Below the pieces are notes generated by a model. The model did no database searches and was not told the origin of the DNA. It saw only the letters and a list, made by a program, of their open reading frames with translations. This document shows positions 298-62,319 of a DNA stretch of 64,000 bases, in pieces. The position numbers were made by a program, and so were the translations under genes. Position 1 is the stretch's first letter; each line of letters begins with the position of its first letter. Location of the stretch: positions 1 through 64,000 of the IMG/VR virus record IMGVR_UViG_3300032401_000001; one strand, 5' to 3'. The DNA is from a virus.

Positions 298-3200
298 ATG
301 CCTGGGAAGAAGAACACGGGGCCTACGGATCCGCAGACCCTGAAGAGGATCGGCGTCGCTTCGATCAAGCGCGTCTGGAACGACATCACGCCCGACCAGT
401 GGCTCGGCTACGTGAAGAACGCGGCTGGAGCGTACAACTGGGTGCGCAAGGGGCCGCGCATCATGGGCCTGTGCCCCTTCCACGACGAGAAGTCCCCGTC
501 GTTCACCATCGACTTCGAGAAGCACTACGCCAAGTGCTTCGGGTGCAAGGCGTTCTTCTGGAACCCCATCACCTTCGTGGCGGCGTTGAAGACCAAGGCC
601 GGCAAGGCGACGACCTACGTCGACGCCATGGTCGATCTGAAGGACACCTACGGGCTCAAGGATTTCCCCGCCAAGGTCATCAACGGGCTCAGCGTGCAGT
701 GGCGGCGCCGCACCATGAAGCGGCTGCTGCACCTGGTCAGCAACGCCGAGTTGTGCGCGGTGGCGCAGCTCTACGACCGGGTCGGCTACGACGCCGCGTC
801 GAGTGACCCGCGCTATGGCTACGCTGCGCGCACGGTGCGATACCTCGACTACCGTGGCATCCCGCGCTCGGCGCCGAACTGGTACGCCGAGCTGCCCATC
901 GGCATGCTGCTGCCGTCGATGGAGCTGGAGCAGCTCCTCAAGGACCGGGCCGAGAAGGAGAACCTCGACAAGGACCAGATGTGGGAGCTGGCCAAGGAGT
1001 ACCTCGACTCCTTCTTCACCAACCCCAGCTTGTGGCAGGGCGCGGTGCTGTACTTCACCGGCGACACGCCCGACCTCCCGAGCCACGTCAAGATCCGGGC
1101 GGTGCCGACGCTGCTGCCGAACGGCATCTTCAGCACCGAGGATGCCAAGCTGGTGCAGTGGGTCAAGGATGAGACCGAAGACCGCCGCGGCATGTTTGGG
1201 CTCTACGGCTGCCCGCCCTACGGGCGCCTGATCGATGCCCAGACGCAGAAGAGCTGCGTCGTCGTCGAGGGCGAGTTCGACATGCTCAGCATCGCGGCGC
1301 AGCAGTTCAACACCCTGCCGCTCAACATCGGCTTCGTCTGCTTCAGCGGCGGCGGCGGGGCCATCGACGGGCTCGACTACCTCAAGGAGTTCGGCTTCGA
1401 GATCGCCTACATCGTCGGCGACAACGATCCCGGCGGCAACGAGTTCGTGAAGAGCGTGCTGGAGAAGACCTTCCACCTGGGCCTGCGCATCTTCACCTGG
1501 CCGGCGGCGTTCACCATCCCGGGCCAGGACAAGATCGACCCGGACGACGCGATGAAGGCGTTCGGCCTCAACACCGTGCAGACGGCGCTGCGCGACCCGT
1601 CGAACTACCAGCTGCCCTACAAGTGGGCGGCCGAACGCGCCTTGTCGGAGATGGTCGGCATCGACCCGCTCGACGTCAGCCAGCTGACCAACCGCGCTTC
1701 CAAGTGGGGCGTCTACGTCCGCGATACGGCGGAGCAGCAGGCCTACGTCGAGGACATCCAGCGGGTCCACCGCACCGTCAACGTCGGCATGATCCTCAGC
1801 AAGATGGCCTCGACCGACGAGCACGAGGAGGCGTTCATCGAACGCATCCGCGGTGTGCTGGCAGCACGACTGTCGGTCCTCGACTGGCTACGTGAAGGCA
1901 ACAACTCGATGCTGCGGGTCTACGACCGCATCACCGATACTCTCTACGACCTGCCTCTCAACGAACCGAAGCGGCTGGCAGCACAGATTGCGGCGCTGTC
2001 TCGCGGCAAGGACATCTATCTCTTCATCCGCAACGAAGTCGGCGAACCCGCCTTCATCATGTCGTATGCCGAGAGCGTGGCCAAAGGCGAGGTCTTCTAT
2101 GCGGACCGTGTCCGCATGCTCGAGCCCTACGTGCAGTGGGCAGTTCAACGCCTCGCCAATGCGCTGCCGGGTACATCGCAAGTGAAGACCATCAGCGCGG
2201 GCACGCACGTCATCGATACGACCGACGAAGACGACAAGACGACCACGACCCTTTACGTGGTAAAGGGCATGAGTCTCTTCAAGGGAACCTACGAAGGCGA
2301 CAGCGACATCCCGCTGTGGCGGAAGTGCAACGGCCCGGCGGATGGCAACGTCGTCATCTACGCTGAGCACGGGCGGCGACCACTCGACGCCTATCCGCTG
2401 TACAAGGACGAGGACGACTTCAATCGGGTGCCCCGGTTGTCTTTCCGGGAGCTCTACGATCTGGTCTACCGGATCCTCAGCACCGGTTGGCGTTTCAAGC
2501 ACCACGAGAACACGGCGCACTTCATGGCCGCGTTCATCCTGCAAGGCTTCATTGCCGACGCCTTCGCCCGCCAACCTCTGCTCATGATCACGGCGGAGCA
2601 CAGCAGCGGTAAGACGTTCCTCGTCGGTGGTCTGATCGGACGTACCTCCAAACCCGCCATCAACATCGTTCAGCCGGCATTGTGGATGGACAACTACACC
2701 GTCGCCGGGGTGCGCCAGGCGATGAACAACTCGACAATCACGCTGTGCCTCGACGAGTTCGAGGACAAGGGCTTGGCGCACGACCCGAAGAGCCAGACGG
2801 TGCAGCGTTTGTCACAGCACTTCCGGGGACTGGCTAACGAAGCGGGCCGGACCATCCAAGGTAGCGTGAACGGACAGCCGGTCGAATACAGCGTGCATCA
2901 CCCCGTCTGGTTGGCCGGCATTCGCCAGACGCAGCTGCCGGAGGACCTCTCCCGCACCATCATGATCGAGATGGATCGGCAGGAGAATCGGCCCACTCCG
3001 GAGGTGCTCCTCCTAGAGGCCTTCGGTGCGCTCACCATTCGCAAGCTTCGTGAAGATGCGCCGTTGATCATGTGGCGCGAACTCCGGGCGCTGCGACGTA
3101 TCTACAACGACGTCGCTGAGCAGTACAAGTACGGCGCCGGTGTCGAGTTCAGCGACATCTCACGTAGCCGTGAGCACTACTACGGCGCGTTGGCGATCAT

Positions 3201-3903
3201 GAAGCACGCCGGCGTCGAGTACGACGTGCTCTTCCGCGACCACTTCCGGCTCAACCGGACCTACCTGTCGCGCATTGCACGTAGCTCGCTGAGCGGGGAC
3301 ATCCTCACGACCGTGCTATCAGTCCCTGCGGTGCGCATGCCCGACATGGGTGACACGGTGCAGCGAACGGTGGGATCGATCCTCAACAGTCCCACCCCGG
3401 AGAACCTCAATCGTACCGCTTCGGGCTGCTACTACGACAAGGAACTGGAAGCGATAGTCATCGACTTCGCGCTGGCGCGCTTCACGATCCTGAGCAGCGT
3501 TCAGGAGTACAGCCATCGGCCGGCAGATTGGCTGAAGGCCCATTCGGTGCGTAACCACTACTACATCAGCGACGAGACGCTGCGCCAGAGCGGAGCTCTG
3601 GATCGTCTCTTGCCCTACATGACACGCGGCAGCCGCATGGAAAACGTGGCCGCGTTCAAGGTGACCGAGTACCTCGACGACGCCGCGCAGTCCCGTACTC
3701 CGGGCAAGTTGAAAGGTATGGAGGACATCGACATGTCACAGGAGTACGCCGAGCAGTTGAAGACGGCCGTGTTCTCGAAGCCCGAAGACGTGCTGGGCAA
3801 GAAGGAAGCCGCGGGAGCGGGTACAAGCACGGGCGACGGCGCGTCTGACACCTCGACGCCACCGCCGAAGAAGGGTGTCAAGGATGACGATTTCAACTAC
3901 TAG
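298..3903 (+). CDS. DNA primase-helicase fusion (CHC2 zinc finger + TOPRIM + P-loop NTPase)
   Basis: 1201 aa. [11 protein letters not shown]...CFGC zinc-binding domain, TOPRIM motifs VVEGEFD and IVGDNDPGG, Walker A AEHSSGKT, Walker B CLDEFE. SD AGGAGG precedes the ATG. Confidence 0.85.
2251..2265. promoter_or_regulatory. Palindromic motif CTTTAC-GTG-GTAAAG (copy 1, inside the primase-helicase CDS)
   Basis: Read directly. Encoded with AT-rich codons CTT and GTA in a CDS that mostly uses G/C third positions. Confidence 0.55.
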
Positions 3904-6900
3904 GCCCGAAGTCAATGATCCGGCCCGGGCGGCGGGCAAGCCGGCGCACTGCAGCAGTTGTCCCTTCTACGCCTACGCCTACGTTCCCGACGCGAGCGAA
4001 CACGAAGCGCGTGTCTTGTTTGTCGGTGACCATCCGGCCATCGCTTCTCCTCACGGTGGCAACGCATTTCAGGACCGGGCGGGCATCGTGGTACGGATGG
4101 CACTCGGGCGGATTCGCGCGCGGTATTCGCGGCTACCCGATGGACCGGATCGACTCGACAAGCTGCGCATCTACTACACCTACGCGGTCCAGTGCATGAC
4201 GGACGACCGCGTACCGAAGGAAGTGACGGCGCACTGCCGCCACCGTCTCGAAGAGACCATCGTTCGCATCCAACCCGACATCATCGTCGCCTTCGGCGCG
4301 GATGCTGCGCGCAGCGTCTTGGGGCGCAGCAAGATGCGCTTCGATGACCTGCGCGGCACAGCGTCACTGCTTACGTTGCCGCGACATGAGAAATCCTTCA
4401 ACGTCTACGTCACCTACTCGCCCAAGGCGGTCCTGGCGCAGCAGGGGCTCTTCCGTGAACTGGAACGCGACCTGCAGAACGCATTTCTCCTCGCCGAAGG
4501 TCGGTTGGATCAACACCGGCATTCCGAAGAGTTCCTCCGGCAGCACTACCAGTTCCCGCACACGGTGGCTGAAGTGCAGGACCTCTGCGACGAGATCATC
4601 AACTACGCCAACGAAGGTGATCCGCCGGGTAAGCACATGATCTCGGTCGACACCGAGACGACTTCGTTGGAGCCTTACGCTCCGGACTTCCGCATCATCT
4701 GTATCTCGTTCGCCTGGGCAGAACTGAAGGCGACTTCGATCGTCCTCGATCATCCGCAGGCGTGGTGGTCGCCGGAAGAACTGGCGCAGGTGAAACAACA
4801 TGTGCAACGTGTGCTGGCCTGTCCGAAGCCGAAGGTGTTGCACAACGGCCAGTTCGACGTTCAAGGGATCTGTCACCACTACGGTTGGCCCCTCGAGAAC
4901 TTCGTGTGGGACACGATGGGCGCTGAGCACTTGCTCGAAGAGGACAAGCAAGGTGCGTATGGCCTCAAGATGCTCACCCGGGTTCGCCTACCTGCCTACG
5001 CAGGCTACGAGGACAAGGTGGCGGAGCTGCGCGAGACGCACGGCAGCATGACCCGCGCACAGGCCAACAAAGCGTTCCGCCGTGCCGTCGATCAGTACCA
5101 GCATGCGCTGGTGGAGTACACGACGCAGCAGACCGCCTACGAGCAGGAACGCGCCAGCTATGACGCTACGTTGTCGAAGTGGCGCGAGAAGTTCACGACC
5201 GAGAAAGCTCGGGCCGCGGCGGCGCGCAAGACCGGCGAGACCAACCGAGAATTGCGCCGCATACGGCAGTCGGTGTTAGACAAGAAGCCGAAGGCACCGT
5301 TGCGGCCGCATCCGCCGGAAGAACCCGTGCATCAGCTGCCTTTCGACTACACCATGATTCCACTGCCGCAGTTGGAGTTGTACGCGGCCGTTGACGCCGA
5401 TGTGACTCGCCAACACGTCCTTCATCAGCACAAGCGCCTGGACACGGAGTATGCCAACGACGTGACGCTGCGGGCGTCGCTACAAGCTGCGCCGCCGCCG
5501 GCACCAGTACGCCGACTCATGCGGGAGCACGTACTCCCCACGAGCCAGACACTGGCGGCGATGGAGTACACCGGTTTCCCGGTGGACTTGGGCTACCTGG
5601 AGGAACTCGACAAGAAGCTGGAGATCGTCGCTCGGGAAACCGAAGAGAAGATCTACCAGCTCGCGGGACAGCGCTTCGTTCTGGGAAACCCCCAGGAGGT
5701 CATCCGGATCATCTTCAACGACGGGTTCTACGAGGAAGGCGCCAAGGTTCGTGTTGATGCGGGCAGTGCGAAGATTGCCCGTACTCCGAAGGGACAGATC
5801 AAAGCTGACGAGAAGGCTCTGCTGTACGTGGCCAACACGTACAAGTACGACTTCCCTCGCCTCTTGGTACGGCATCGCAAAGCGTGCAAGGCGCGGTCAC
5901 CGTTCCTCACGAATGTGCGTGAGCACGCAGTCATCGATGGCCGTATGCACCCGAGTTTCCATCTCGTCGGGACGTGTACAGGACGGACCAGCTCTTCAGG
6001 TGAGAACATGCAGAACATCCCGAAGAAGCTGGCCGACGTCAACATCAAGAAGATCTTCATCCCGCTCGAAGGCCACGTGCTCTGTAACGTCGATGCGAAG
6101 GGCGCCGAGGTACGGCTCTTCGCCGCCTATTCGAACGACGCCGAGCTCATCAAGTCCATCAACGACGGTCTTGATACTCACTCCTACTTCACTGCGGAGG
6201 TCTACCCCGATCGCTTCACGTATGCCTACATCGAGCAGCAGCGACAGACGCTCGATGACATCGTCGACCGCAAGATCGAGCTCGCCAAGACTGGGTTGAA
6301 GCTGTCTGCGGAGGACGTCGCCGCGCTGGCCGTGGCTGAAGCCGTGGTCAAGCAGCGCACCAACACCAAGCGTGTCGTGTTCGGTACGCTCTACGGGGCG
6401 CAGGCTGCGAAGATTGCTGAGACTGCTGGTATCAGCAAGGACGAAGCCCAGAAGGTCATCGACGGCCTCTTCCGGCGGTATCCTTCGATCCCCGCCTACA
6501 TCCAGGCGACTGAGATTGAGGTCAAGGCGTTCCACAACATCTACACCTATACGGGGCGGAAGCGCCGGTTCCCGTTGGCGGATCGCCAATCCTTCGCTTC
6601 ACGCTGCTTTCGTCAAGCCGTCAACTTCAAGATCCAGTCGACCAGCAGTGACATCGTGCTGTGGGTCCTCAACCAAGTCTTTCCGGTCATCTCTCGTGAT
6701 CTGCGGGGCTTCTTCCACGCGACGGTACACGACAGTCTCGTCTTCAGCGTGCCGCCACAGTACGTCTCTCAGGTGCCCGAGGTGATGCGTGAGTACGGGA
6801 CGCGCCGTGTTGCCGAAGCTTGTCCTTGGCTCCCGGTGTCTTTCCTGTGGGACGTGGAAGTTGGACCGAGCTACGGTGAAACGGTTGACATCAAGAAGTA

Positions 6901-7024
6901 CCTCGAGAAACATCCACTGCCGGCACCCACTACCACCACAGGAGACCTCGATGAGCAAGGGGAAGACGAAGTCGTCACGGACGATGAGTTCCGATCCGAA
7001 ATCCAAGAAGTCGCCACTGAATGA
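3875..7024 (+). CDS. polA: Family A DNA polymerase with 3'-5' exonuclease and an N-terminal family-4 UDG-like domain
   Basis: ExoI SVDTETT, ExoII LHNGQFD, ExoIII YAAVDAD; motif [11 protein letters not shown], motif [12 protein letters not shown], motif C ATVHDS. N-terminus CSSCPF...LFVGDHP...[10 protein letters not shown]...TYSP is UDG4-like. Start may be ATG 3884. Confidence 0.93.
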
Positions 7025-8039: not shown

Positions 8040-8430
8040 AACGAAGTGGATCGCTTTCACCCAGAGCACTCGAAAGTGCTGGCGGCGTTACGTCGCCACT
8101 GCTGCGCTTTACTGCGTAAACCGACGAACTCGGCCTCGAGCTCCTCGGCGAAACGAAGTGGGATGCCATCGCTGACGATCACGTCCTCCGCCGGCGAAAA
8201 AGGCAAACGAAGTGGGCAGTGCACGGTAGATACGCCACACCCGGTCTAGTTAGTCCTGCAAAGGCCGCCGGTGCCACGCCGGCATTCAGGTCTGGTTCTC
8301 TGCGAGAACCCTGATCTGATCGGATCCGCCGCGACGAGCTACTCCACTCCTCGTGCAGTTCCCGCGGTTATCGAGACGCCGAACCACCTGCCGACCTCGA
8401 GGACCTGCCGCGTCGCTTCCAACGAAGTAG
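8040..8430 (+). repeat. Four dispersed AACGAAGT(G/A)G motifs
   Basis: Copies at 8040-8049, 8152-8161, 8206-8215 and 8421-8430. Confidence 0.8.
8107..8121. promoter_or_regulatory. Palindromic motif CTTTAC-TGC-GTAAAC (copy 2, inside the non-coding region)
   Basis: Read directly. Confidence 0.6.
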
Positions 8431-8667: not shown

Positions 8668-10218
8668 TCAACCAGTGAAAGTCAGGTCCATCAGCAGCAC
8701 CTTGGCGGCGAGCCAGCCGAAGAGCTGTGCGTGGAAGCAGTCATCCGGCTGGGTCGGCGCATGCCGCCAGACCTTCTTGCCGTTGACCGTGACCTCCTCG
8801 TAGATGTTGAGGATGTCGGTGATCGGTTCAAGCATGCAGCTGAGCCGGGGAAAGATGACGCCCTGGCGCTTCAGCACCATGAAGTAGTTGTCCATCAACG
8901 TGGTGCGGTCTGCGGTGTAGAACAACCCCTTCTCGTTCCAGGAAATCGTCCGGGCCTGAGCGCCGTACATCACCTGAGAGACGCGGTTCGACCCCAGACG
9001 CTGCGCCAAGAGATCGTTCGCCAGGTGGCCTTCACCACGATCACCGATCACCAGCTCGACGTGGTGAGCTTGCAAAGCTTCCGCCACGTCGTCGACGATG
9101 CTCACCGGACTGGTGATGGGATAGACGCGGTAGTAGAGCGTGCGCAACTGGTGGTTCTTGGTGACCGCCCAGATCCAGACGACGGTACGCGACACGCCTT
9201 CTGTACCACCGCCCGACCAGTCCACGCCGCCGACGACATGGCGGTACTCCATGTTGATGCCCGGCGAGGGTTGCCGGTAAATGTCGTAGTCCTCGCACAG
9301 CGCCTCGAGCTCCTGCTTCGAGATGATGCGCGCGCCGAGAGCATCGCTGATGCCCAGGACCTCGTTCTTGAACTTGGTGTCGCTGTAGCGCGCGAGCTTG
9401 GTCAGGATGCGCTGCCAGCGGTTGGGCTGCTCAGCGTTGCGCGGCAGGATGAGCTGGGGGATGTGGAAACCGGTCAGGGTTGCTTCCGGCTTGAAAGAGT
9501 ACCACTGTCCGTTACGCGGGTTCAGGGCGTGGTCGCACTTCACGCACACGGGACCAACCTTGCCCACCGCTTTCGCGTTATCGATGAAGCTGTAACGACC
9601 ACACCCATCGCACTTCATGATCCACTCGTTCTGAGTCGAGATGGACCAGAGGTACTCGATGGTGTTCTCCATGGTCTTGGGCGTGCCGGCGTACGTCTCG
9701 TAGCCGTACTCCGAGTTGCCCATACATTCGTTTATGACCGGGATAACCGGTTCATAGAGGATGTCTTGCACCTCGTCGTAGCAGCAACGGTCCGCGGTGT
9801 TGCCACGCGCGCGGTCAGGATCGTCGAGCGCGTAGGTGAACGAGATCTCGGAGCCATTGCGGAACATACGCAGCATGGTCCGTTGACTCAGCTCGGAAGC
9901 GTCGACCCAGTACTGCTTGATCAGTGGCGAGTAGAGACACACCTTGCCGACGCGGGTATTGGAGAACTTGCGGGTCTGCTCTTGCGACGGTGACACGTAC
10001 AAGCTGCGAAAATGACTGGTGCCGATGCCTTCGCTGATGAGGAAGTTGCACAGCGTCGTCGACTTCGCGACTTGCCGGCCCGACTTCAGCAGCATGCCTT
10101 GGTAGTTACCGTCGTAGATGGCGTGGTAGAAGGGGTAGTCCCCGAGCGAGAACGGTTGTCCATCCAGGTACAGCAGGTGCTGCGCCAAGTCCGAGCGCAG
10201 TTGTGGAGGAATATCCAT
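8668..10218 (-). CDS. terL: Terminase large subunit (GpA-like, with zinc finger)
   Basis: Walker A LLKSGRQVAKST, RARGNTAD, Walker B CYDEVQD, YAGTP coupling motif, CDGC...CVKC zinc finger, nuclease motif GGVDWSGGG, C-terminal PDDCFHA. Start ATG 10218 or GTG 10242. Confidence 0.88.
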   Translation of the reverse strand: MDIPPQLRSDLAQHLLYLDGQPFSLGDYPFYHAIYDGNYQGMLLKSGRQVAKSTTLCNFLISEGIGTSHFRSLYVSPSQEQTRKFSNTRVGKVCLYSPLIKQYWVDASELSQRTMLRMFRNGSEISFTYALDDPDRARGNTADRCCYDEVQDILYEPVIPVINECMGNSEYGYETYAGTPKTMENTIEYLWSISTQNEWIMKCDGCGRYSFIDNAKAVGKVGPVCVKCDHALNPRNGQWYSFKPEATLTGFHIPQLILPRNAEQPNRWQRILTKLARYSDTKFKNEVLGISDALGARIISKQELEALCEDYDIYRQPSPGINMEYRHVVGGVDWSGGGTEGVSRTVVWIWAVTKNHQLRTLYYRVYPITSPVSIVDDVAEALQAHHVELVIGDRGEGHLANDLLAQRLGSNRVSQVMYGAQARTISWNEKGLFYTADRTTLMDNYFMVLKRQGVIFPRLSCMLEPITDILNIYEEVTVNGKKVWRHAPTQPDDCFHAQLFGWLAAKVLLMDLTFTG

Positions 10219-19811: not shown

Positions 19812-19826
19812 CTTTACGACGTAAAG
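19812..19826. promoter_or_regulatory. Palindromic motif CTTTAC-GAC-GTAAAG (copy 3)
   Basis: Overlaps the TAA of 19814..20191 and sits just before the SD of 18791..19801. Confidence 0.6.
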
Positions 19827-20191
19827 ACGTAGGTAGTCGTCGACGGGAACGCATCGGCAACTTCAGCTGTTGCGGGCGCCAAGTATGCCAGTTGCTGACG
19901 GACCACGGCAGCGAAGTGCAGAGCTTCGTCGAGAGCGGTGAAGTCACGCGTCGCATCTGATCGACGGTAGAAGTCGAGTCCAGCATCGATGGCTGCGTTG
20001 CGGTCCTCGGGGAAGTTGGCGAGGTCGAGTGGCGAAGCGATGTGACTGTACTCGTCGGGGTCCACATCGTTGACGAAGAGTGCCAGCGTGAGATTCTCAG
20101 TGGCACTGATCTGATTGGCGACCCGGTATTTCGGTGTGCCCTGGTCGTCGATGATCGACTGTACCTGCGACAGCGTGATGCTGACGTTCAT
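19814..20191 (-). CDS. Putative virion structural protein
   Basis: 125 aa; its N-terminal pattern resembles the flanking paralog-like genes (xTLxQ...YRV...ITxxxxL...LFV). Confidence 0.6.
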   Translation of the reverse strand: MNVSITLSQVQSIIDDQGTPKYRVANQISATENLTLALFVNDVDPDEYSHIASPLDLANFPEDRNAAIDAGLDFYRRSDATRDFTALDEALHFAAVVRQQLAYLAPATAEVADAFPSTTTYVFTS

Positions 20192-24615: not shown

Positions 24616-24630
24616 CTTTACCTCGTAAAG
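24616..24630. promoter_or_regulatory. Palindromic motif CTTTAC-CTC-GTAAAG (copy 4)
   Basis: Fills the gap between the terminator U-tract and the GGAGG SD of the lysis cluster. Confidence 0.65.
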
Positions 24631-29882: not shown

Positions 29883-29897
29883 CTTTACGCGGTAAAC
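29883..29897. promoter_or_regulatory. Palindromic motif CTTTAC-GCG-GTAAAC (copy 5)
   Basis: Overlaps the stop of 29885..30421; the first half lies ~27 nt before the fibre ATG on the - strand. Confidence 0.6.
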
Positions 29898-38547: not shown

Positions 38548-38573
38548 GCTCCGAGTTTACTGCAACTGAAGGG

Positions 38574-41516: not shown

Positions 41517-41525
41517 GGTCCTAGC

Positions 41526-42293
41526 CTACCCCGCAAGCACGCCGGTCTCGAGCACTTTCGCAAGACAGACGGCCAGGCAGCTCATCGGTACTCGCAGGTT
41601 GGGGTCATCGATGTCGTAGCGGCGGAGCAAATCGGCGTGCATCGCGGGCAGCCCCAGCGTTTGCAGCTCTCCGATGACCGCCGTCAACAAACCGGGTTTA
41701 CCGCGTAAAGCAGTGTCGATGACGAGGTTCGAACGCTGCCGGCACAGGTGGACAGCTGCCTCGATGGACGTGGGTGTTGGCACCAACGTGCGCAGTACTG
41801 GTGCCAAGTCGTTGCTGTGTGCGCGCAGGAACAACCAGCGTACGGCGCGGTTCACCTGGGGTCGATCGATGGCTAGATCGAGCAGCAGGGTACGGAGCTG
41901 ATCGGTGCTGCGCAGCGTTGAATCCCAGTGATCGTAGGGCAGCAGCAGCGACTGTTCGAAGCTGTTGGGAGGACCGACGAAACAAGTCGGGTCTTCGTCA
42001 ACCCACAAGGTCCAGCGCGCGGCGCTGTCACTGAAGACGCCGAAGGTCAACTGCGCCGCATAAGGCCACGCTATCGGCGGCGAAACCTCGTACCGGTAGC
42101 TGCTACCGCCCAAGCTCGTCCGCATGACCGTATAGCCACCGCGAGCTGTTTCGTCGAAGTAGATGACGACGTCATTGATGCTGATGAGCACAGCCGACAG
42201 GAGCGGTGCGCCGGTCAGTGTGAACTTGACGGCCTGCGTCGGTGCTGTCAGGTGGTCAGGTACCGGATCGTAATCGGAAACCACGGCAGGCAC
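41526..42293 (-). CDS. Hypothetical protein in the tail operon
   Basis: 255 aa with tight spacing to both neighbours. Confidence 0.65.
   Translation of the reverse strand: MPAVVSDYDPVPDHLTAPTQAVKFTLTGAPLLSAVLISINDVVIYFDETARGGYTVMRTSLGGSSYRYEVSPPIAWPYAAQLTFGVFSDSAARWTLWVDEDPTCFVGPPNSFEQSLLLPYDHWDSTLRSTDQLRTLLLDLAIDRPQVNRAVRWLFLRAHSNDLAPVLRTLVPTPTSIEAAVHLCRQRSNLVIDTALRGKPGLLTAVIGELQTLGLPAMHADLLRRYDIDDPNLRVPMSCLAVCLAKVLETGVLAG
41696..41710. promoter_or_regulatory. Palindromic motif GTTTAC-CGC-GTAAAG (copy 6, intragenic)
   Basis: Requires a TTA Leu codon in a GC-rich gene; ~180 nt upstream of the hub gene start. Confidence 0.55.
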
Positions 42294-42296
42294 GTA

Positions 42297-43262: not shown

Positions 43263-43263
43263 C

Positions 43264-43473
43264 CTACTGCTCCTGCGGCGTGTCGCCGAGCTCGATCACT
43301 ATCTCGCCGGTGTTGTAGACCACGGCGAACGCTAGCTTGTAGAGCGACGGCAAAGCGAGATCAGCGTCTTGCCGTCGCCGCAGGTTGTTCATGATGTTGT
43401 CGTTGGCCAGGCGCAGCAAGCTCCGCGGCGTCGGCATCGTGAGCTGGCGAGTCGGTTGGTTGGCCATCATCAA
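43264..43473 (-). CDS. Small hypothetical protein
   Basis: 69 aa, coupled to the tape measure stop. Confidence 0.5.
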   Translation of the reverse strand: MMMANQPTRQLTMPTPRSLLRLANDNIMNNLRRRQDADLALPSLYKLAFAVVYNTGEIVIELGDTPQEQ

Positions 43474-46400
43474 TCCTTCGTCGCTCGACCCACCGTGTGC
43501 GCTACGGCTGAAGAGCGCAAGTACTCCGAAGTCTTGCGGAGGTCTTCCGTCGCCGCGCGGAATTCCTTTACGTCACGGCCACTGAGACCAGCTGCGCGTC
43601 CCGCCTCATCGCCGAACTTCTCCAGCTTGTCGGCTTGTTTGCGCGCCGCACGTTCACCGGCTCCACCAACGCCCTTACCACCGACACCTTCGCCACCGGC
43701 CTCGAATCCGCGTCGAACCAACTCAGCGCGTTTTTTCGGATCCTTCTCCGCTTCTTCTACGATAGCGGCTCGATCGTTGCCGGTCTCTGCCGCGATGACA
43801 TCCGCACCCTTCTGCAACGCCATGGCAGTGCGCACGCCCTCACTATCGCCTCTCACCTTCTGGGTCGCAGCAACTTGCGCTTCGCTACTCAGTCCCGCCA
43901 TCGTCTGGCCGAACTGGCGCAGTGCTTGTTGGATCTCAGGATCACCGGGTCTATTCTCCGGTTTACGCGCGTCTTTCCGCAGTCGGTCGTACTCACCCGG
44001 TTTGCCGGCGAGACGCGCTTTCACGGCGTCGCGAAGCTTCGTCGCGTTTTCGCTGTCACCTTTAGCGTCGAGCGCCTCTGCGGACGCCAGTAGCATGAGG
44101 TTGTCATCCTCGGTGCGGATGGCGAATTCTTCGAAGCCCTTCACACCCTTCTCTGAGATCCGTGTCGCCCGTCCTATCACAGCACCGATGACGGCGCCTA
44201 CAGGTCCCGCAGCTAAGAGACCGGCAACGGCACCGGTACCGGTAGCCGTACCAGTTTCACCAAGGAATGTGCGCGTCTTTTCAGCCTGCTCTTCTGCTTG
44301 TTTCTGAGCTTCCTCGAGATTGCGGGCTCGCTTGCCGGTATACGCTTCTTGCGTCGTAGTCAGAGCCCCCTTGGCGGCAGCCCCGCCTTCGTGTCCCAGG
44401 CGCCCCATGACGACCTCACGAGCACCCTGATCCCATTGCTTCGCCGCGGCGTCAGCATCGACACCTTCGCGACTCGCTGCAGCGATGAAATGCTTCTTGG
44501 CTTCTTCGTCACTCAGGGTCTTCGCGCGGCCCGCGAATGGAATGACGGCGCCCAAGCCTTGAACTTGCGCCAACTCCTGTCGTTTCGCCAGCGTACCGCT
44601 CATGCGGTCCACGATGGATTGCATCGTATCGGCGTTCACTTCACCGCCACCACCACCACCACCCCGTTGTGCCGCGTTGAGAGCTTCGATCTGGGCTTGT
44701 TGCGCGCGGGCCATTTCACCTTCGCCCATGCCCATGCCCTTGGAGATGCCAGCACCGAGCTTGGTCACATCCTCAGCTTCACGCCGCAGCTGTTGGGCAA
44801 AGGTTTCACCGCCCTTGATCTTTTCAATAGCCCTGCCCGCTGTGCTGATGCCACCGCCCATCATGAAGCGATCGGCACCACCGGCACCAAACATGTTGGC
44901 GGCCCAGGGCGCGTATTCGGCAACTTGGCCCCACGTGCCACCACGGGCACGCGCCCACTGAGCAACGTTGGATTCGCGCGCTGCGGATGCTTCTGGAAGA
45001 ATGGCCGTACCGACGCCTACCATCGCAGCTTTACCTAAACCACCACCAAAGGCCATCGGCAGAATGTCTTTCGCGCCACCGTACATCGAAGACAGTTCTT
45101 CCCAAGCCGTAAGCGGCGTGTCACCGCGGGTCGGACGCAGCCCTCCCGCAGCACCGCGGGCACGTTCCCAACCCTTGTCGGTGAGCATGTTCCGTTCAAG
45201 GACGCGTTGAGTTTCGCGATTCTCGACAGACAAGCGCTCTGAGGGACGTACAATCTGCGCACCTGTGGTAGTGCGATCACTTCCCGTCCACCACGACGCG
45301 ACGTCGGTACGCAGACCGCGGTACATCTCCCCGAGGCCACCACCGACACGCCCGAGTTTCTCCCCAGCTTCATAGACGGGCCGGAACATCTCGCGCCGGG
45401 TCGCGGCGGCACCGGCGTCGATGACGTTCTGCCGCCGTTCCATCTCCTCTTGGCGCATGCGGGGGATGTCGGCACGAACTTGCTGGGCCGCCGCCCGCCA
45501 GACATCGCGGTTCCCCGCCATGAGCTCGAGGTCGCGCGCCTGCTGCGCTCCCATCCCCAGCTGTTGCAGTGCACTGCCGAGACCGATGTTGCCGCCAAAC
45601 TCGCGCTGTACGTTCATGCCTTGCCGGATGAGCATCATCTGCATGCCCATCGGCCCCAGGCGGCGTCCCATCTCGTCGGCCAGTTCCCGCTGCCGCGAGG
45701 TGAACTCTGAGATCACGCGCTCTTGTGAAACTCCGCCCATCTGGGCCAGCCGCGAGATGTTCGTCGCGGCTCCGGACGCTTGTTGCGACAGCGAAGCGCG
45801 GCCGGACTGCACGTCTTCCAGGCGTTCCTGATCGATCGTCAACTCACCCTTAGCCCCGCGGGTCAGCATCGACATGAGCGGGTAGCGCATGTTGAGCATC
45901 GCCGCCTGGCCTTCCATCATCGTCTGGGCCAGACCCTGGCGACCACCGGCGAGCGCGAGTTGCTGCGGGGTGTAGGTGCCGACGGCTTCAGCTTGCCGGG
46001 CCATGCCGTAGGCGCCCATGCCGGCCTGTGCTCCCAGCCCAGCGGTGAGCCCCGCTTGCTGGAACATCATGCCGCCGTGCCGGCCCGCCGTTTCCATCAG
46101 CGCCTGGGGGGTGGTGCCCGCCATGCGCGAGAAGAGCTGCGCGTTGCGCGCCGCGACCATGGTCTCAGGAACCGAAAGACCCATCGCCCGCATGCTGGCC
46201 ATCGATTGCATGGCCTGCTGTACGTCGGGACTCTCGACGATCATCATGAACTGGCGTACCGCCCGGGCGATGTTGCGCACCTGGCCGGAGATCTGCTCAC
46301 CCGACTGCGCCATGTCCATCATGCCGCGTTGACCAGCGATGTTCGTGATGCGCATCACGTCGCGCATGTTGAACTCGCTCATCTCGCCGCCTTCGACCAT

Positions 46401-47384
46401 CTTCTGCATCTGCCCCGCCGTTTGCACGGCGGCGCGCTGGGTCAGGCCCCGTCCCAGCGGGTGCAACTGTGGACCCGTGACCACGAACTGCCGGGTCATC
46501 TCTTCGAGTTGCTGGCCGTAGGCGCGTTGCCGAACCATCGGGTCAATCGCCGCTTCACCGATGCGCGTCAAACCCAGCGGCTCAGCCCCGAGTGCCCCGG
46601 CTACGCCACCGCCAAAGAATCCCAGTGCGGCCCCGCGCGCACCTCCCATACGAGCGCCCAGAGCTGCACCACCCAGCGCGCCGGGAACCGACCCCGCCAA
46701 CGTCGGGGTCACCGCCATCGCCTGGGCGAAGGCGCGGTTCCCCATGGTCTCCTGCTGCATCTGCTCACGGAACCATGGTTCACCGAAGCGACCACCTGGT
46801 GCCGGACCACCGAAGACCTGTGGCAGCATGCCACCCAGCTGGGGTCCGCCGGGGAAGAGCGGCATGTACGGCTGCGGGATGAACGGCGCCGGCATGGGCG
46901 CGTTGAAGCCCACGGGTGGCACCTGGGGCTGCATCAGCGCGCCCGGAGCAAAGAGCTGGTTCGCCGGTAAGCCGGGGCGGTACATCGCCATCGCCGCCGG
47001 GGTCTGGTAGATGGGGCTGGGAATACCACCGGGACCCGGTAGGCCCATGGTAGGTGTGCCTCCCGCTTGGGTCTGCGCCATGTACTGCGCGATCTGTGCG
47101 GGCAGGTAGTTCTGCTGGATCTGCTGTAGACGCTGGGAGAAGTCGACGGCGAACTGGTTCTGGACCTGGCTATGCTGGTGGGCGGCCTGTACCTGGGTCT
47201 GCATCTGCGCCGCCATCTCTGCGGCGACCTGCCCCGGGTGCTTGGTCTGCGGTTGCTGGAAAGCTTGTGCTACCGGTCCGCCGAATCCTTGAGCACCGCC
47301 GGACGTAGGCAGCAGCCCGACCTGGGCGGCCATGCTGTTGAACCCGGTGATGATCTCGCGCAGGTTCTGGGTCGCGTCGGCCAC
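43470..47384 (-). CDS. Tail tape measure protein
   Basis: 1304 aa, Ala/Gly/Met/Gln-rich and helical, directly downstream of the chaperone pair. Confidence 0.8.
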   Translation of the reverse strand: MADATQNLREIITGFNSMAAQVGLLPTSGGAQGFGGPVAQAFQQPQTKHPGQVAAEMAAQMQTQVQAAHQHSQVQNQFAVDFSQRLQQIQQNYLPAQIAQYMAQTQAGGTPTMGLPGPGGIPSPIYQTPAAMAMYRPGLPANQLFAPGALMQPQVPPVGFNAPMPAPFIPQPYMPLFPGGPQLGGMLPQVFGGPAPGGRFGEPWFREQMQQETMGNRAFAQAMAVTPTLAGSVPGALGGAALGARMGGARGAALGFFGGGVAGALGAEPLGLTRIGEAAIDPMVRQRAYGQQLEEMTRQFVVTGPQLHPLGRGLTQRAAVQTAGQMQKMVEGGEMSEFNMRDVMRITNIAGQRGMMDMAQSGEQISGQVRNIARAVRQFMMIVESPDVQQAMQSMASMRAMGLSVPETMVAARNAQLFSRMAGTTPQALMETAGRHGGMMFQQAGLTAGLGAQAGMGAYGMARQAEAVGTYTPQQLALAGGRQGLAQTMMEGQAAMLNMRYPLMSMLTRGAKGELTIDQERLEDVQSGRASLSQQASGAATNISRLAQMGGVSQERVISEFTSRQRELADEMGRRLGPMGMQMMLIRQGMNVQREFGGNIGLGSALQQLGMGAQQARDLELMAGNRDVWRAAAQQVRADIPRMRQEEMERRQNVIDAGAAATRREMFRPVYEAGEKLGRVGGGLGEMYRGLRTDVASWWTGSDRTTTGAQIVRPSERLSVENRETQRVLERNMLTDKGWERARGAAGGLRPTRGDTPLTAWEELSSMYGGAKDILPMAFGGGLGKAAMVGVGTAILPEASAARESNVAQWARARGGTWGQVAEYAPWAANMFGAGGADRFMMGGGISTAGRAIEKIKGGETFAQQLRREAEDVTKLGAGISKGMGMGEGEMARAQQAQIEALNAAQRGGGGGGGEVNADTMQSIVDRMSGTLAKRQELAQVQGLGAVIPFAGRAKTLSDEEAKKHFIAAASREGVDADAAAKQWDQGAREVVMGRLGHEGGAAAKGALTTTQEAYTGKRARNLEEAQKQAEEQAEKTRTFLGETGTATGTGAVAGLLAAGPVGAVIGAVIGRATRISEKGVKGFEEFAIRTEDDNLMLLASAEALDAKGDSENATKLRDAVKARLAGKPGEYDRLRKDARKPENRPGDPEIQQALRQFGQTMAGLSSEAQVAATQKVRGDSEGVRTAMALQKGADVIAAETGNDRAAIVEEAEKDPKKRAELVRRGFEAGGEGVGGKGVGGAGERAARKQADKLEKFGDEAGRAAGLSGRDVKEFRAATEDLRKTSEYLRSSAVAHTVGRATKD

Positions 47385-47387
47385 TGT

Positions 47388-47858
47388 CTATTCATCCTTG
47401 TGCCAGGGCTTGTCGATCCCCTTGCGGGCGGCGGTACGGCGTGCGGCAAGACGTTGTTCGAAGACTGCTGCACGTCGCTGCTGTTCCGTATTGTCCTCCT
47501 CCTCACTGAAGGAAGCAACCCGCTCGAGCAGGCGCGCATCCCGCATCGCTACTTCTCGTCGCAGCTTCGACTCGCGCTGTAGGTCTTGCAAGCGGCGTTC
47601 GATCTCCTCCGGGTTGAAGATGGTCCCGAAGATGGCCAGTGCGAGCTCCTCCTCCAACCGGCTAACAAAGGCGGCCCCGGCACCGCGCAGCAGCCCAGTG
47701 AGCATACGTCCGGTGTGCACCGTCGTGTAGTACGACGCGATGCGTTCACGCTCGAGCGTCTCCTGCAAGATGCGATCTTGGACCGAGCCACGAGGCGGCA
47801 GCGAGAGACCCCGAGCGCGGAGGGACGCCCGTGCATAGCCCCGCGGCTGGGCTAGAAA
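47388..47858 (-). CDS. Tail assembly chaperone C-terminal (GT-like) extension, probably reached by -1 frameshift
   Basis: The frame is open upstream of the annotated TTG 47768 back into the upstream gene's last codons: FLAQPRGYARASLRARGLSLPPRGSVQDRILQE... Confidence 0.65.
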   Translation of the reverse strand, partial: FLAQPRGYARASLRARGLSLPPRGSVQDRILQETLERERIASYYTTVHTGRMLTGLLRGAGAAFVSRLEEELALAIFGTIFNPEEIERRLQDLQRESKLRREVAMRDARLLERVASFSEEEDNTEQQRRAAVFEQRLAARRTAARKGIDKPWHKDE

Positions 47859-48541
47859 TGCTCGGCGACTCCTTCACGCATGATCGCCAAGACGAGCCGA
47901 TCGAACTCGGCCAGCTTGACACTGATCTTGGCGAAGAGCGCGCTGGGCATGCGTTCGACGTAGTGCAGCCGTTCGTCGAACAGCTTGTGCGAGGCCTTCT
48001 CTTCCGTGTCAGCGGTGCTGAACGAGAAGCGCCGACCGTTGGGACCGTTGATGGCGGCGAGCGAAGCCGCGACGTTGTAGCGGATGATGATCTCCTGCTG
48101 CACGTCCTGGTAGATCGGTTGCTGAGCCTGCAGAGCGGCGTGGAGGCGCAACGTATCGAGATGCGCGCGGGTGCGGAAGATCACGCTGGTCCGCTTCGTC
48201 AGCGGGTACTCCTCCTCGTGGTAACCCTTCATCAGCAGATCGTCGATGATCTCCGCCGCTTTCGACTGCTCAATCTTCTGCTCCTCGAGGAACTTGGCGT
48301 AGTCCCGCACCGGCAACAGCGCCTGGCTCATGTCCTCGTACAGCGACAGGCGGCCCTTCGCTTCTTGTTCCTGCTTCGCCGCCTCGGGCGGCAGCTGCGT
48401 CGTGTCGTCGGTGGTCTTCTCGGTGGTTGCAGTGGTGGTGGCGGCAGGTGGCGTTGGTGGCGTTGCCGCGGTGGTCTTGTCACCGGGACGCACGAAGTCG
48501 CCGAGCTTGGGACGTGCTGATGTGGGTTCTGACGTGGTCAT
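47852..48541 (-). CDS. Tail assembly chaperone (G-like)
   Basis: 229 aa two ORFs upstream of the tape measure gene; ends GAG CAT TTC TAG. Confidence 0.7.
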   Translation of the reverse strand: MTTSEPTSARPKLGDFVRPGDKTTAATPPTPPAATTTATTEKTTDDTTQLPPEAAKQEQEAKGRLSLYEDMSQALLPVRDYAKFLEEQKIEQSKAAEIIDDLLMKGYHEEEYPLTKRTSVIFRTRAHLDTLRLHAALQAQQPIYQDVQQEIIIRYNVAASLAAINGPNGRRFSFSTADTEEKASHKLFDERLHYVERMPSALFAKISVKLAEFDRLVLAIMREGVAEHF

Positions 48542-48597: not shown

Positions 48598-48612
48598 CTT
48601 TACGGCGTAAAG
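48598..48612. promoter_or_regulatory. Palindromic motif CTTTAC-GGC-GTAAAG (copy 7)
   Basis: Near the centre of the divergent gap between the tail operon (-) and the SLT gene (+). Confidence 0.65.
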
Positions 48613-48678: not shown

Positions 48679-49257
48679 ATGCAACAGCTCATCGAACTGC
48701 TGTTTATCCTGCTGCGCCTATGGGCACCGTTGCCGACGGCAACTATCCCGGCTGAACCGCTCGAACAACGGGCCTTCCGCCTCACCCAGAACGATCGCTA
48801 CGACCCGCTCATCCTAGTCGCCGCGCAAGAATGGAAGATCGATCCCTTCCTCTTTAAGGGGTTGCTCTTCGCTGAGTCCGGCTTCAAGCCACAGAAGATC
48901 AACCGACTCGGTGCTGCGGGGATCGCTCAGCTGACGGGGGGTGGACGTACCGGTGTCCGCAATGTGCGCTGCATGCGTGGCTTGTGCCGATCTTTCACGT
49001 TGCAAGACGCGCTCAATCCAGAGACTGCGATCCCGGCGGCCGCAGAGTTGCTCGCGTATCTGCGTCGCACCTGTGGTGAAGACCGCATGCTCTCCGCCTA
49101 CAATACAGGCAACTGCAAAGCTCGAGTTCGCGTCTTCGTCAGGGTGGTGACGCAACACACGAACCGATTTCGTACCCTCGGTGGTTTGCCGCCGCTATCG
49201 CTACCACCGACGCGTCCTTCTCGTCTACTTGCCCAGCAGAACCCCCCGAACAGCTGA
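48679..49257 (+). CDS. Lytic transglycosylase (SLT domain) with hydrophobic N-terminus
   Basis: YDPLI...AAQEWKIDP...AESGF...GAAGIAQL...AAAELLAYL...LSAYNTG. Confidence 0.85.
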   Translation: MQQLIELLFILLRLWAPLPTATIPAEPLEQRAFRLTQNDRYDPLILVAAQEWKIDPFLFKGLLFAESGFKPQKINRLGAAGIAQLTGGGRTGVRNVRCMRGLCRSFTLQDALNPETAIPAAAELLAYLRRTCGEDRMLSAYNTGNCKARVRVFVRVVTQHTNRFRTLGGLPPLSLPPTRPSRLLAQQNPPNS

Positions 49258-56208: not shown

Positions 56209-56985
56209 GTGCTGCTCGGCATCCTCGGCGAAGCGGGTACCGGTAAGGATGAGGTCGCCCGGATTCTGGTACAAGAGGGGCGTAGCTACATCGTCGCCTT
56301 CGCCGACCCGATGAAGATCTACGCTCGCTGGATGTTCGGCTGGGATCCTGAAGTCCTGTGGGGCGCCAGTGCCCGGCGCGCCGAGCTCGACGAGCGCTTC
56401 AAGTTCCCGAAGTGCCCTACGTGTGGTCGTACTGAAGGCATTCGTGATCCAGATGGCGTCGACGTCGGTGCCGCGACTTGGCGAGTCTGCGCTTTCTGCA
56501 AGACCGCGACGCCATTCGAGCAGGTCATGGTTCCAGTCTCGCCGCGCTACGTGCTGCAACACCTGGGCGACTGGGCGCGCCGCTTCCGCGCCGACGCCTA
56601 CGTGGCGTTTGCGCTGCAGCGCGCCGCAGCTGTGCAGGAGTACCGCACCACACTGGCCGACCCGCTGGCAGTCGTGTTGCCGCCGGTGATCATGGATCAA
56701 CGCTGGCGACGGCGATCACTTGACAACGCGCCCCTCCACGTCGTCATCAACGACGTGCGCATGAAGAACGAGATCGCCGGTATCCACGACGCGGGTGGGC
56801 GCGTCTACCGCGTGAAGCGAAAGCACGCCATGGCCGTGCTGGCCCCCGGCATCCCCAATCACCAGTCCGAGCTGGAGCAGCGCACCGTCCCGGATGACGC
56901 CGTCGACGGCATCATCGACAACAACGGCACCCTCGAAGACTTGCGCGGTGTCATTCACGACCTGCTGGATGGCCTCGAGCACTGA
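56209..56985 (+). CDS. Deoxynucleoside monophosphate kinase (T4 gp1-like) with a zinc-ribbon insertion
   Basis: GILGEAGTGKD, AFADPMK, LQHLGDW, INDVRMKNE, HQSE, IDNNGTLEDL. Confidence 0.85.
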   Translation: MLLGILGEAGTGKDEVARILVQEGRSYIVAFADPMKIYARWMFGWDPEVLWGASARRAELDERFKFPKCPTCGRTEGIRDPDGVDVGAATWRVCAFCKTATPFEQVMVPVSPRYVLQHLGDWARRFRADAYVAFALQRAAAVQEYRTTLADPLAVVLPPVIMDQRWRRRSLDNAPLHVVINDVRMKNEIAGIHDAGGRVYRVKRKHAMAVLAPGIPNHQSELEQRTVPDDAVDGIIDNNGTLEDLRGVIHDLLDGLEH

Positions 56986-57003
56986 CACAGAAAGGACTCC
57001 TTC

Positions 57004-57675
57004 ATGACCCAGCGCTACTTGCTCGTCGACACGGAGACCACCGGGCTTGACCCCAACCGGCACGCCTGTCTCGAAATCGGAGCCGCAGTCCTCGACGACA
57101 AGTTCGAGCTGGTGCCCGAGGCCGTCTTTCACAGCTACATCCGCCCCGGGCCGAGCGCCATCATCGACGGCACCGCCATCCAGATCAACGGTCACGGCTG
57201 GGCCGTGGACGCAACTTCGGCGACCTACCTGGCCGCGCCGCAACCCCATGAAGCCTGGAAGCACTTCTTCGACTGGCTCGCCCAGCACTTCGCTGAAGAC
57301 GGGATTCCGAAGCAGATCATCCCGGTGGGCTGGAACGTCGGCTTCGACGTAGGCTTTCTTCGACGGCTGTGGTGCGAGTATCTGATGACGTTGTCGCTGA
57401 AGCTCAACGTCCAGAAATGGACGCAGTTGCGCGACCATCCGCTGAAGGGCCACGGCTGGCCCATGCACTACCACATCATCGATCTCATCGGCGTGTGCCG
57501 CTACCTCGACGTTCGCGCCGGGCGCAGCCGCAAAGGCTACAAGCTCAGCGCCATCGCCGACGAAGTCTTGACGTCGGCTACCCGCGATGAGCTGCACCTG
57601 AAGTTCGGTGCGGCGCACACGGCCCTCGCCGACGCCTACATGGCACTGCACGTCGTCCGCGCTCTCGAAGCCTAG
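57004..57675 (+). CDS. DEDDh 3'-5' exonuclease (DnaQ-like)
   Basis: LVDTETTGLDP, GWNVGFD, IDL, HTALADA. Confidence 0.88.
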   Translation: MTQRYLLVDTETTGLDPNRHACLEIGAAVLDDKFELVPEAVFHSYIRPGPSAIIDGTAIQINGHGWAVDATSATYLAAPQPHEAWKHFFDWLAQHFAEDGIPKQIIPVGWNVGFDVGFLRRLWCEYLMTLSLKLNVQKWTQLRDHPLKGHGWPMHYHIIDLIGVCRYLDVRAGRSRKGYKLSAIADEVLTSATRDELHLKFGAAHTALADAYMALHVVRALEA

Positions 57676-57702
57676 TTCACCTCCCCTACAACAGGAGTCA
57701 CC

Positions 57703-58260
57703 ATGGTCACCAGCTACGGCTACGTGCCGGCAGCGGGGTACCGGGTACGTCGTGACGCGCCACGTACCCGTGACCTGCGCCAAGCCCTGCGTAGTCGCAA
57801 GGGCGAATGCAAGAACGGCAACCACCGTACGGAAATCGACGATCCCATCGTACCCGTGCCGGGCTATCCCGACCTGCAGAAGTGCGAGGGCTGTGAGCTG
57901 CTGTTGAAGTGCAACTCCAGCGGCGTGGCGGGACCCCCCTGGCAATCGAGCCGTGATCGTGAAGCACCCGACAACCAGCCACTCGAGTACTACCGCTGCT
58001 TGCGCGAGACCAAGCGCATCCGTTTCTATTTTCACGGCACCTGTTGTGTCGAGCTGGACATCAAGGCGCAGCTAGTGACCGACCACTCGACCTACGGCTG
58101 GTCCGTGTCGACAGGCCGCGCTATCCGGTGGTACCTCGAAGCTCTCGACGACGAGAACTACATCGGTTCGCGCGATCGCGTCTACGAGCTCATCAAGCTC
58201 TTCCGTAAGCACGGCCGCGGCAGCTACTTCGACGACGCGCCGTGGTACCCCACCTCCTGA
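57703..58260 (+). CDS. Hypothetical protein
   Basis: SD AGGAG; 185 aa. Confidence 0.65.
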   Translation: MVTSYGYVPAAGYRVRRDAPRTRDLRQALRSRKGECKNGNHRTEIDDPIVPVPGYPDLQKCEGCELLLKCNSSGVAGPPWQSSRDREAPDNQPLEYYRCLRETKRIRFYFHGTCCVELDIKAQLVTDHSTYGWSVSTGRAIRWYLEALDDENYIGSRDRVYELIKLFRKHGRGSYFDDAPWYPTS

Positions 58261-61868: not shown

Positions 61869-62303
61869 ATGATCGACGTTCGGCTGAAGCAAGTCGTCTC
61901 CGCGTCGTTCAACAAGAGCTGTCACACGCAGCTCGAAGAGTTCCGTCGCGCCAACAAGGGCAACAACGATCTCGTCGATGGCTTCAAGCAAGGCGAAGCT
62001 GTCATGTTCCTCTCGCTCGGCGAGAACCAGCTGCGCTTCTGCTACAAGCCCATCGAGGCCGAGCGCGGCGAGCTGCTCGGCTCAGCCGAGTGCTGGATGC
62101 CGGATCACGTCCACACCAGCTACTTCTGGCTGCAGATCCGCCTGAGCGGCCGCTGGAACCCGCTCATGCTGGCCAACATCGCCAAGCGCGCCGGCATCCA
62201 CCTCGTCGGTCTCAAGCACTTCGAGGAGTACTACGAACACCTCCTCACCGAAGACCGCATCACCAAGCGGGAGGTGAAGGAGAAACGGCGCAAGTCCGGC
62301 TAG
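61869..62303 (+). CDS. Hypothetical protein
   Basis: SD GGAGG; 144 aa. Confidence 0.7.
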   Translation: MIDVRLKQVVSASFNKSCHTQLEEFRRANKGNNDLVDGFKQGEAVMFLSLGENQLRFCYKPIEAERGELLGSAECWMPDHVHTSYFWLQIRLSGRWNPLMLANIAKRAGIHLVGLKHFEEYYEHLLTEDRITKREVKEKRRKSG

Positions 62304-62304
62304 G

Positions 62305-62319
62305 CTTTACCGCGTAAAG
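62305..62319. promoter_or_regulatory. Palindromic motif CTTTAC-CGC-GTAAAG (copy 8)
   Basis: Intergenic, directly before the SD (AAAGGA) of 62334..63152. Confidence 0.65.

Follow-up and report, generated by a model that had tools for sequence, protein, structure and literature searches.

Evenly spaced palindromes in the genome of an uncultured 198-kb phage and a partner-less ParB-family protein as their candidate reader

The palindrome and its place among the genes

The 64,000-nucleotide stretch analyzed here (the window; IMG/VR virus record IMGVR_UViG_3300032401_000001, positions 1 to 64,000) is the first 64 kb of the genome of an uncultured sediment phage, hereafter G000, which is 197,792 bp long, has a GC content of 63% and is rated complete. 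The element under study is a short palindrome, STTTAC-N3-GTAAAS, that recurs along the window. The initial annotation of the stretch had listed eight copies, and every start that it gave is exact. Among the G000 genes, which were called with a codon-usage model built from long open reading frames (ORFs) of the same genome, these eight exact matches are placed as follows:

2251..2265, inside the primase gene 298-3903 (+)
8107..8121, between the uracil-DNA-glycosylase (UDG)-PolA gene, which ends at 7024, and the large terminase gene 8668-10218 (-)
19812..19826, between same-direction minus-strand genes, 11 nt upstream of the start of 18791-19801 (-)
24616..24630, 12 nt upstream of the ATG at 24642
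29883..29897, between 29885-30421 (-) and 27470-29869 (-), 14 nt upstream of the start of the latter
41696..41710, inside gene 41526-42284 (-)
48598..48612, near the middle of a divergent intergenic region
62305..62319, 2 nt past the stop of 61869-62303 and 15 nt before the ATG at 62334

The core TTTAC-N3-GTAAA matches eight times in the window, always with S flanks, and not once in 100 dinucleotide-preserving shuffles of the same sequence. No one-mismatch variants are found in the window, and a tolerance of two mismatches adds only four matches, at the level of chance. Over the whole of G000 there are 23 perfect palindromes against ~0.03 expected from base composition, which bears out the annotation's estimate of ~0.01 copies per 64 kb, together with a single one-mismatch variant against ~0.3 expected. 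The symmetrized consensus of the site is sTTTAC(s)N(s)GTAAAs. The half-sites that had been named upstream of several genes do exist, but as a class they are not enriched: the plus strand of G000 holds 44 copies of TTTAC and 56 of GTAAA, with 23 of each inside palindromes and ~73 of each expected, which leaves 54 isolated half-sites against ~145 expected from base composition. The isolated half-sites therefore add nothing to the case.

The surroundings of the individual copies are diverse. The only ORF that overlaps the copy at 8107 is a weak one of 41 amino acids. The upstream neighbor of the copy at 19812, gene 19814-20191, terminates within the palindrome. A GC-rich, terminator-like hairpin followed by six T's (24570-24615, +) abuts the copy at 24616, with gene 24642-25088 beyond it, and the copy at 48598 is flanked by the divergent gene starts of 47852-48541 (-), 57 nt away, and 48679-49257 (+), 67 nt away, the latter an SLT transglycosylase by its Pfam match. 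As had been remarked of several copies, the palindrome comes just ahead of a gene, ending 11-15 nt before the start codon at 19813, 24617, 29884 and 62306 (positions of the core). Across G000, 15 of the 23 copies clearly fall between genes, another five overlap dubious short ORFs or the ends of genes, and three are clearly intragenic (2252, 41697 and 164125); several of the copies between genes occupy very short gaps in runs of same-direction genes, 11-31 nt upstream of the next start codon. Base composition predicts an intergenic share of 15%, yet isolated half-sites already reach 35%, so that a mostly intergenic word built of two half-sites in a GC-rich genome needs no promoter function. We set the intergenic excess aside as evidence for a promoter, since the tolerance of AT-rich words in a genome of 63% GC can explain it.

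Regular spacing and conservation in related phages

The G000 copies are far more regularly spaced than chance would place them. With the genome treated as circular, gaps between neighboring copies range from 2.2 to 13.7 kb (the largest being 13,707 bp), the coefficient of variation (CV) of the spacing is 0.385, and no position is farther than ~7 kb from a palindrome. In 200,000 uniform random placements this evenness was never equaled, whether judged by the largest gap or by the CV. A stricter null, in which 18 of the 23 sites were drawn from the real intergenic gaps, gave at most one placement in 100,000 as even as the observed one; the grid of sites is therefore not a by-product of gene layout.

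Related uncultured phage contigs were first reached through the large terminase, and further genomes were found by scanning IMG/VR with one 14-mer instance of the site. Relatives with a terminase 65-70% identical to that of G000 keep the word (6 copies in 69 kb of G001, 17 in 86 kb of G002, 17 in 96 kb of G003 and 4 in 25 kb of G008). The GC content of G001-G003 is 51-59%, and overall the palindrome is kept in relatives of 51-60% GC. At 49% terminase identity (G004 and G005) there is one chance copy each, and at 31% (G009 and G010) there is none. The 14-mer scan yielded complete genomes of 179-194 kb with 21-28 copies (G011, G013, G015 and G030) and G016 with 6, as well as many single-hit contigs, which were used as controls. 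A megablast search of cultured phage records with 20 kb of G000 gave no match, and a single metatranscriptome run supplied nothing beyond short contigs from a 90-95% relative.

G011 and G016 have a looser second half-site, their word being TTTAC-N3-GTA(nn). The relaxed word TTTAC-N3-GTA is enriched about 12- to 19-fold in the complete relatives G011, G013, G015 and G030, and its spacing is even in all four (P(CV) <=5e-5 each); G011, for instance, carries 64 relaxed sites, about one every 2.8 kb, with a largest gap of 5,973 bp. G016 is enriched ~13-fold (28 sites against ~2.2 expected), with marginal evenness (P(CV) 0.04, P(largest gap) 0.62). The relaxed word is at chance, with a spacing CV of 0.7-1.3, in G005, G010 and the negative control G017, a 172-kb contig from the 14-mer scan that shows neither motif enrichment nor a match to the phage ParB profile.

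The initial annotation had named a lack of conservation in related phages among the outcomes that would speak against it; the word is in fact kept, partly at matching positions. The primase copy recurs at the matching position in G000, G001, G002, G003 and G030, where LYxV(K/N)G is written CTT TAC nnn GTA AAn, and the G015 primase has no site there and a GTC codon for the Val. In G000 the copy at 2251 is read CTT TAC GTG GTA AAG (LYVVK) and the copy at 41696 GCT TTA CGC GGT AAA. The two clearly intragenic copies of the window do use rare codons, as had been noticed: CTT (3.5% of Leu codons) and GTA (7.4% of Val) at 2252, and TTA (0.5% of Leu) and AAA (12.5% of Lys) at 41697. In the relatives 60-75% of copies are intragenic. 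From the rare codons, the conserved primase copy and the survival of the word across GC contents, the palindrome is selected at the DNA level.

A ParB-family protein as the candidate reader

A Pfam search for ParB_N finds a single gene in G000, at 193,953-195,062 (+), outside the window and just ahead of the primase and polymerase module on the circular map. Its product matches ParB_N (E 2e-17) and HTH_ParB (E 3e-11), and its GERRLRAA and ENxQxE..P.EEA boxes align to Spo0J and Noc. A cytidine triphosphate (CTP)-binding domain with the GxxRxxA box and a helix-turn-helix (HTH) domain, both expected of a ParB clamp, are thus encoded on the same replicon as a short (13-16 bp), over-represented palindrome, as expected of the loading site of such a clamp. 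The top Foldseek matches of the modeled ParB core are ParB, Noc and KorB structures; Noc is among the best of them, with 7nfu, 7ol9 and 6y93. The core is preceded by a disordered, charged N-terminal tail of 60-70 residues. A three-helix domain, not recognized by the Pfam ParB C-terminal model, makes up the C-terminal 70 residues. A homodimer predicted for these 70 residues scored 0.81, against 0.01 for the best of three controls, and the prediction runs shared at least 79% of contacts with a partner predicted local distance difference test value of at least 83. As calibration, 20 of 30 proteins whose solved structures are pairs of one chain score this high, as does 1 of 23 proteins with single-chain structures; because our own alignment was used for ParB, these counts apply only roughly. 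Dimerization through the C-terminal domain, which would close the clamp, is predicted by these models.

An alignment of nine homologous ParBs, 23-44% identical, has 15 invariant columns, among them residues of the CTP box and, in the recognition helix, G211, S214 and Q215. A protein database search sets the phage ParB clade sharply apart from cellular ParBs (at least 243 bits versus at most 200). Among 49 listed clade members the recognition-helix position reads SQ in 37 and FQ in one, with 11 unmatched by the search pattern, whereas cellular ParBs mostly have AN. Most clade members lack the catalytic Glu of the GERR box, reading GHRR (28 of the 49) or GYRR, GWRR or GFRR instead, and both arginines of the box are kept. 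The most divergent ParBs are those of G011 and G016, with GRRR and GHRR boxes. A ParB search of viral contigs, with a single protein or a four-row alignment, returned only genomes already in the comparison set.

The parB gene lies tail-to-tail with a sigma-70-like gene, 195059-196036 (-), with Pfam regions 2 and 4. The pairing is kept in G001, G002, G011, G013, G015, G016 and G030, and in G005 with a divergent ParB-like gene. As a hint of autoregulation, one palindrome stands 31 nt upstream of the first gene (192338) of the parB-containing operon in G000, but G001 and G002 have no palindrome at the matching place, and the autoregulation reading was set aside. No ParA ATPase was found in G000 (PF13614, PF01656), and the ParA-binding peptide [LFI]G[KR]G[LFI] occurs in none of the nine homologous ParBs. 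We rejected a ParABS partition system on both counts, and without a ParA in the phage the array is not a classical segregation system.

The protein and the site occur together. Across 22 contigs of at least 30 kb from the 14-mer scan, a full-length ParB homologue is present in all five motif-rich complete genomes and in none of the 15 single-hit contigs. G001-G003 carry a ParB homologue, and G010 has neither ParB nor motif. G005, with a GC content of 40.7%, has a divergent ParB-like gene (56818-57948) in the same gene neighborhood, its box reading EGNRR and its recognition helix INARL instead of ISQRL. This genome shows no enrichment of the TTTAC word and carries another dispersed palindrome, TAGC-N6-GCTA, in 30 copies against ~2 expected, with four copies of TTAGC-N6-GCTAA within 600 bp of intergenic DNA (e.g., 127230-127833). 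We also screened 250 G000 proteins for presence in at least four of the five motif-rich complete genomes and absence from three motif-free ones. Twenty of them show this pattern, and ParB alone among the 20 has a recognizable sequence-specific DNA-binding domain.

The initial annotation had offered several interpretations of the palindrome. A parS- or matS-like DNA-organizing site fits the evidence best, the likely reader being the ParB encoded outside the window, and the promoter, sigma-factor and HTH-regulator options find no support in it. With moderate confidence, we read the palindromes as docking (loading) sites of the phage's own partner-less ParB-family clamp. By analogy with ParB, Noc and KorB, we infer that the G000 ParB binds the palindromes, uses CTP and slides. 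A ParB dimer would recognize sTTTAC-N3-GTAAAs through its HTH domains, bind CTP, close as a ring around the DNA and slide off, which would free the site for the next dimer. Spreading from the 23 sites could then cover the whole chromosome; full coverage would be possible because every point lies within ~7 kb of a site. The purpose of such coverage might be gene silencing or timing at a distance, as with KorB, the compaction or organization of replicating DNA, or the marking of phage DNA as self. It is tempting to speculate further that a clade of ~180-200 kb phages without ParA tiles its chromosomes in this way, and that ParB-CTP coats the genome as a chromatin-like or self-marking layer that could organize, silence or shield the replicating phage DNA rather than segregate it, a picture that we hold to be possible but doubtful.

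Several observations weigh against a ParB clamp loaded at the palindromes. The co-occurrence of ParB and motif is confounded and not independent evidence, because all motif-rich genomes belong to one clade of ~180-200 kb phages, and the 19 other clade-specific proteins of the screen, mostly without a known fold, show the same pattern of presence and absence. Unlike classical parS, the sites do not cluster near parB. G016 has a ParB yet only its 6 perfect sites, unevenly spaced. The GERR Glu is replaced in several relatives (GYRR, GHRR and GRRR), and CTP hydrolysis may therefore differ across the clade. Finally, a local regulatory role may apply, as the G000 copies are mostly intergenic and several of them closely precede start codons.

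ParB-CTP clamps have known roles in the segregation of chromosomes and plasmids (ParB), in nucleoid occlusion (Noc) and in the silencing of plasmid genes (KorB). If our reading is true, it would add a viral use of the ParB-CTP switch, with a clamp able to reach all of a 198-kb genome, and would provide a testable case of genome-wide organization in a phage. That the grid is upheld against codon usage and over a wide range of GC contents suggests that coverage matters for infection, where it may serve the timing of expression, compaction before packaging or the discrimination of viral from host DNA. The site and its ParB form a small, self-contained pair that is amenable to laboratory testing even though the phage is uncultured.

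Known systems and alternative readings

The closest parallel is KorB of plasmid RK2, a ParB-family CTPase that loads at a 13-bp palindrome, slides and silences promoters at a distance (PMC11790492). The KorB operator TTTAGC-S-GCTAAA is confirmed in the KorB literature, and in our own comparison KorB-OB and the phage site have the same 13-bp length and the same outer bases, TTTA...TAAA, but differ in the inner half-site (AC in the phage, AGC in the KorB operator). Both replicons encode a ParB-family, CTPase-type protein with an HTH and carry sites across their whole length, some adjacent to promoters and some remote. KorB acts together with IncC, a ParA-type protein, and with KorA, which locks the clamp, whereas G000 has no ParA and no identified KorA-like partner; in addition, the tail domain of the G000 protein is unmatched by the Pfam ParB C-terminal model, and its replicon is a large phage. 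The OB sites of RK2 number about a dozen on 60 kb, and we know of no report that they are evenly spaced.

Noc of Bacillus subtilis, with its Noc-binding sites (NBS), is the nearest case without a partner, a ParB paralogue that has many palindromic sites over most of a chromosome and the architecture of a CTP clamp. It differs in an N-terminal membrane-targeting helix and in blocking cell division, the G000 ParB having its disordered charged tail instead, and in the recognition helix, which reads AN in Noc and SQ in the G000 ParB. The matS site of Escherichia coli is a 13-bp palindrome of 5-N3-5 layout, present in about two dozen copies, that organizes a region of the chromosome. The phage site shares the length, the layout and a similar copy number. 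However, MatP is a ribbon-helix-helix protein and none is encoded in G000, and matS is limited to one macrodomain, whereas the phage sites tile the replicon. In the literature we found no description of an evenly spaced, genome-wide array of sites in a phage.

Among the alternatives to a ParB clamp, it is unlikely, if arguable, that the palindrome is the operator of a different dimeric DNA-binding protein of the phage, of unrecognized fold, acting as a global repressor or activator near gene starts. Such an operator would suit the 15-20 of 23 G000 copies that are intergenic, several of them 11-31 nt before start codons, as well as two copies near promoter-like words, one about -36 relative to TATAAG and one ~20 nt downstream of TATACT, and the 19 clade-specific proteins that share the pattern of ParB, mostly without a Pfam match, offer candidates. 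Its layout is comparable to that of the stoperators of cluster A mycobacteriophages, asymmetric 13-bp sites that are oriented with transcription and bound by the immunity repressor (L5 gp71). Like the G000 sites, stoperators occur as two to three dozen copies of a 13-bp word in a phage genome, often in short gaps between same-direction genes. However, they serve the repressor of a temperate phage and are not reported to be evenly spaced, and the G000 word is symmetric, unoriented and often intragenic in relatives. We rejected the stoperator class on the symmetry and lack of orientation of the word, and also because G011 and the partial contigs G001-G003 gave no match to the Xre-type HTH protein at 52476. 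That protein, the only Xre-type HTH of the window, had been proposed as a reader of the palindrome and is set aside for the same reason; the other regulator proposed, at 61368, has no detectable HTH. The operator reading is further disfavored by the 60-75% of copies that are intragenic in relatives, by an even spacing that operators are not expected to show, by an intergenic excess in G000 about that of AT-rich words (the 35% of isolated half-sites) and by the varying distances to promoter-like words.

We consider it quite unlikely that the palindrome is the site of a DNA enzyme acting at regular intervals, for example an endonuclease that nicks or cuts, a factor of recombination hot spots or a base-modifying enzyme. 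The 23 G000 copies match perfectly and degenerate variants are all but absent, a stringency reminiscent of enzymes, and regular spacing would suit processing or modification at intervals. Against this, a looser second half-site is accepted in the relatives, which is the behavior of dimeric binders; nicking at a palindrome would hit both strands and break the DNA; and no candidate enzyme was identified in G000. Phage ParB-like proteins are known to activate thymine dioxygenases, according to a 2026 paper (PMC13229309), in which the activators lack a DNA-binding domain. We rejected this system for G000, whose ParB has an HTH and which yields no Tet/JBP dioxygenase gene (PF12851, E <= 1). Orphan proteins of the ParB-CTPase fold are common on mobile elements and phages, as a 2025 survey shows (PMC12704722), and the parts of these two papers covered here contain no genome-wide site array.

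A host protein, either ParB/Noc-like or another regulator, that the phage exploits is a very improbable reader. Phages do borrow host DNA-binding proteins; however, the same word is found in phages of 51-63% GC, with probably different hosts, and it tracks the presence of a phage gene. A search for MatP (PF06303) in the phage genome gave no match, a result that bears on the genes of the phage and not on those of the host.

The initial annotation had given first place to a late promoter or operator for the phage sigma factor encoded at 37834-38547. G000 indeed has two sigma-like genes, several copies lie directly upstream of ribosome-binding sites, and one is immediately 3' of the terminator-like hairpin. 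Sigma promoters, however, are asymmetric, directional elements at a fixed distance, and the palindrome does not fit this description: it is strictly symmetric, it is mostly intragenic in relatives, with copies at a conserved position, and its one-sided variants show no significant bias when compared with the strand of the local genes (43 in the same direction and 63 opposite). A promoter, a stoperator-like roadblock or an RNA element would be co-oriented with transcription, and the lack of bias is among the results that speak against a promoter or an RNA element. Both sigma-like genes (37834-38547 and 195059-196036) are also present in motif-free relatives. Separately, the words cggTATAAGa and ccTATA[AC]T, both -10-like, are repeated ahead of genes in intergenic stretches outside the window, and the intergenic DNA of the window has neither. 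These words are probably the real promoters, of two classes; their distance to the palindromes is variable. It is highly improbable that the palindrome itself is a promoter element for one of the phage sigma factors. Examples of the -10-like words in G000 are as follows:

plus strand, -10-like words at 84521, 115181, 124277 and 184190
minus strand, -10-like words at 122183, 126054, 127545, 133853, 139367, 157186, 179668 and 184149

An mRNA hairpin, for example a processing or translation-control site, is barely credible: a stem of 5-6 bp with a 3-nt loop could form just upstream of several ribosome-binding sites, but folding of the eight window copies gives weak stems, with no hairpin as the best fold in three and a z-score beyond -2 in one, and the sequence is strictly identical without compensatory changes, the relaxed variants have no strand preference, and the outer bases are non-complementary in three window copies (C/C at 8107, C/C at 29883 and G/G at 41696), which, as had been argued from the outset, favors a DNA site over an RNA stem.

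Some other genes of the window deserve mention. The product of 3884-7024 (+), 1046 amino acids long, has a uracil-DNA-glycosylase-superfamily domain ahead of 3'-5' exonuclease and family A polymerase domains. The region 27470-47384 (-) holds large genes of 799, 1247, 677, 980 and 1304 amino acids without a Pfam match, and smaller neighbors of 379 and 321 amino acids are also unmatched; the set surrounds the sigma-like gene 37834-38547. Finally, gene 18791-19801 (-), which starts 11 nt from a palindrome, encodes a 336-residue protein with a match to KfrA_N that falls short of the Pfam cut-off (E 2.7e-4); KfrA_N is a DNA-binding domain known from the kor region of RK2.

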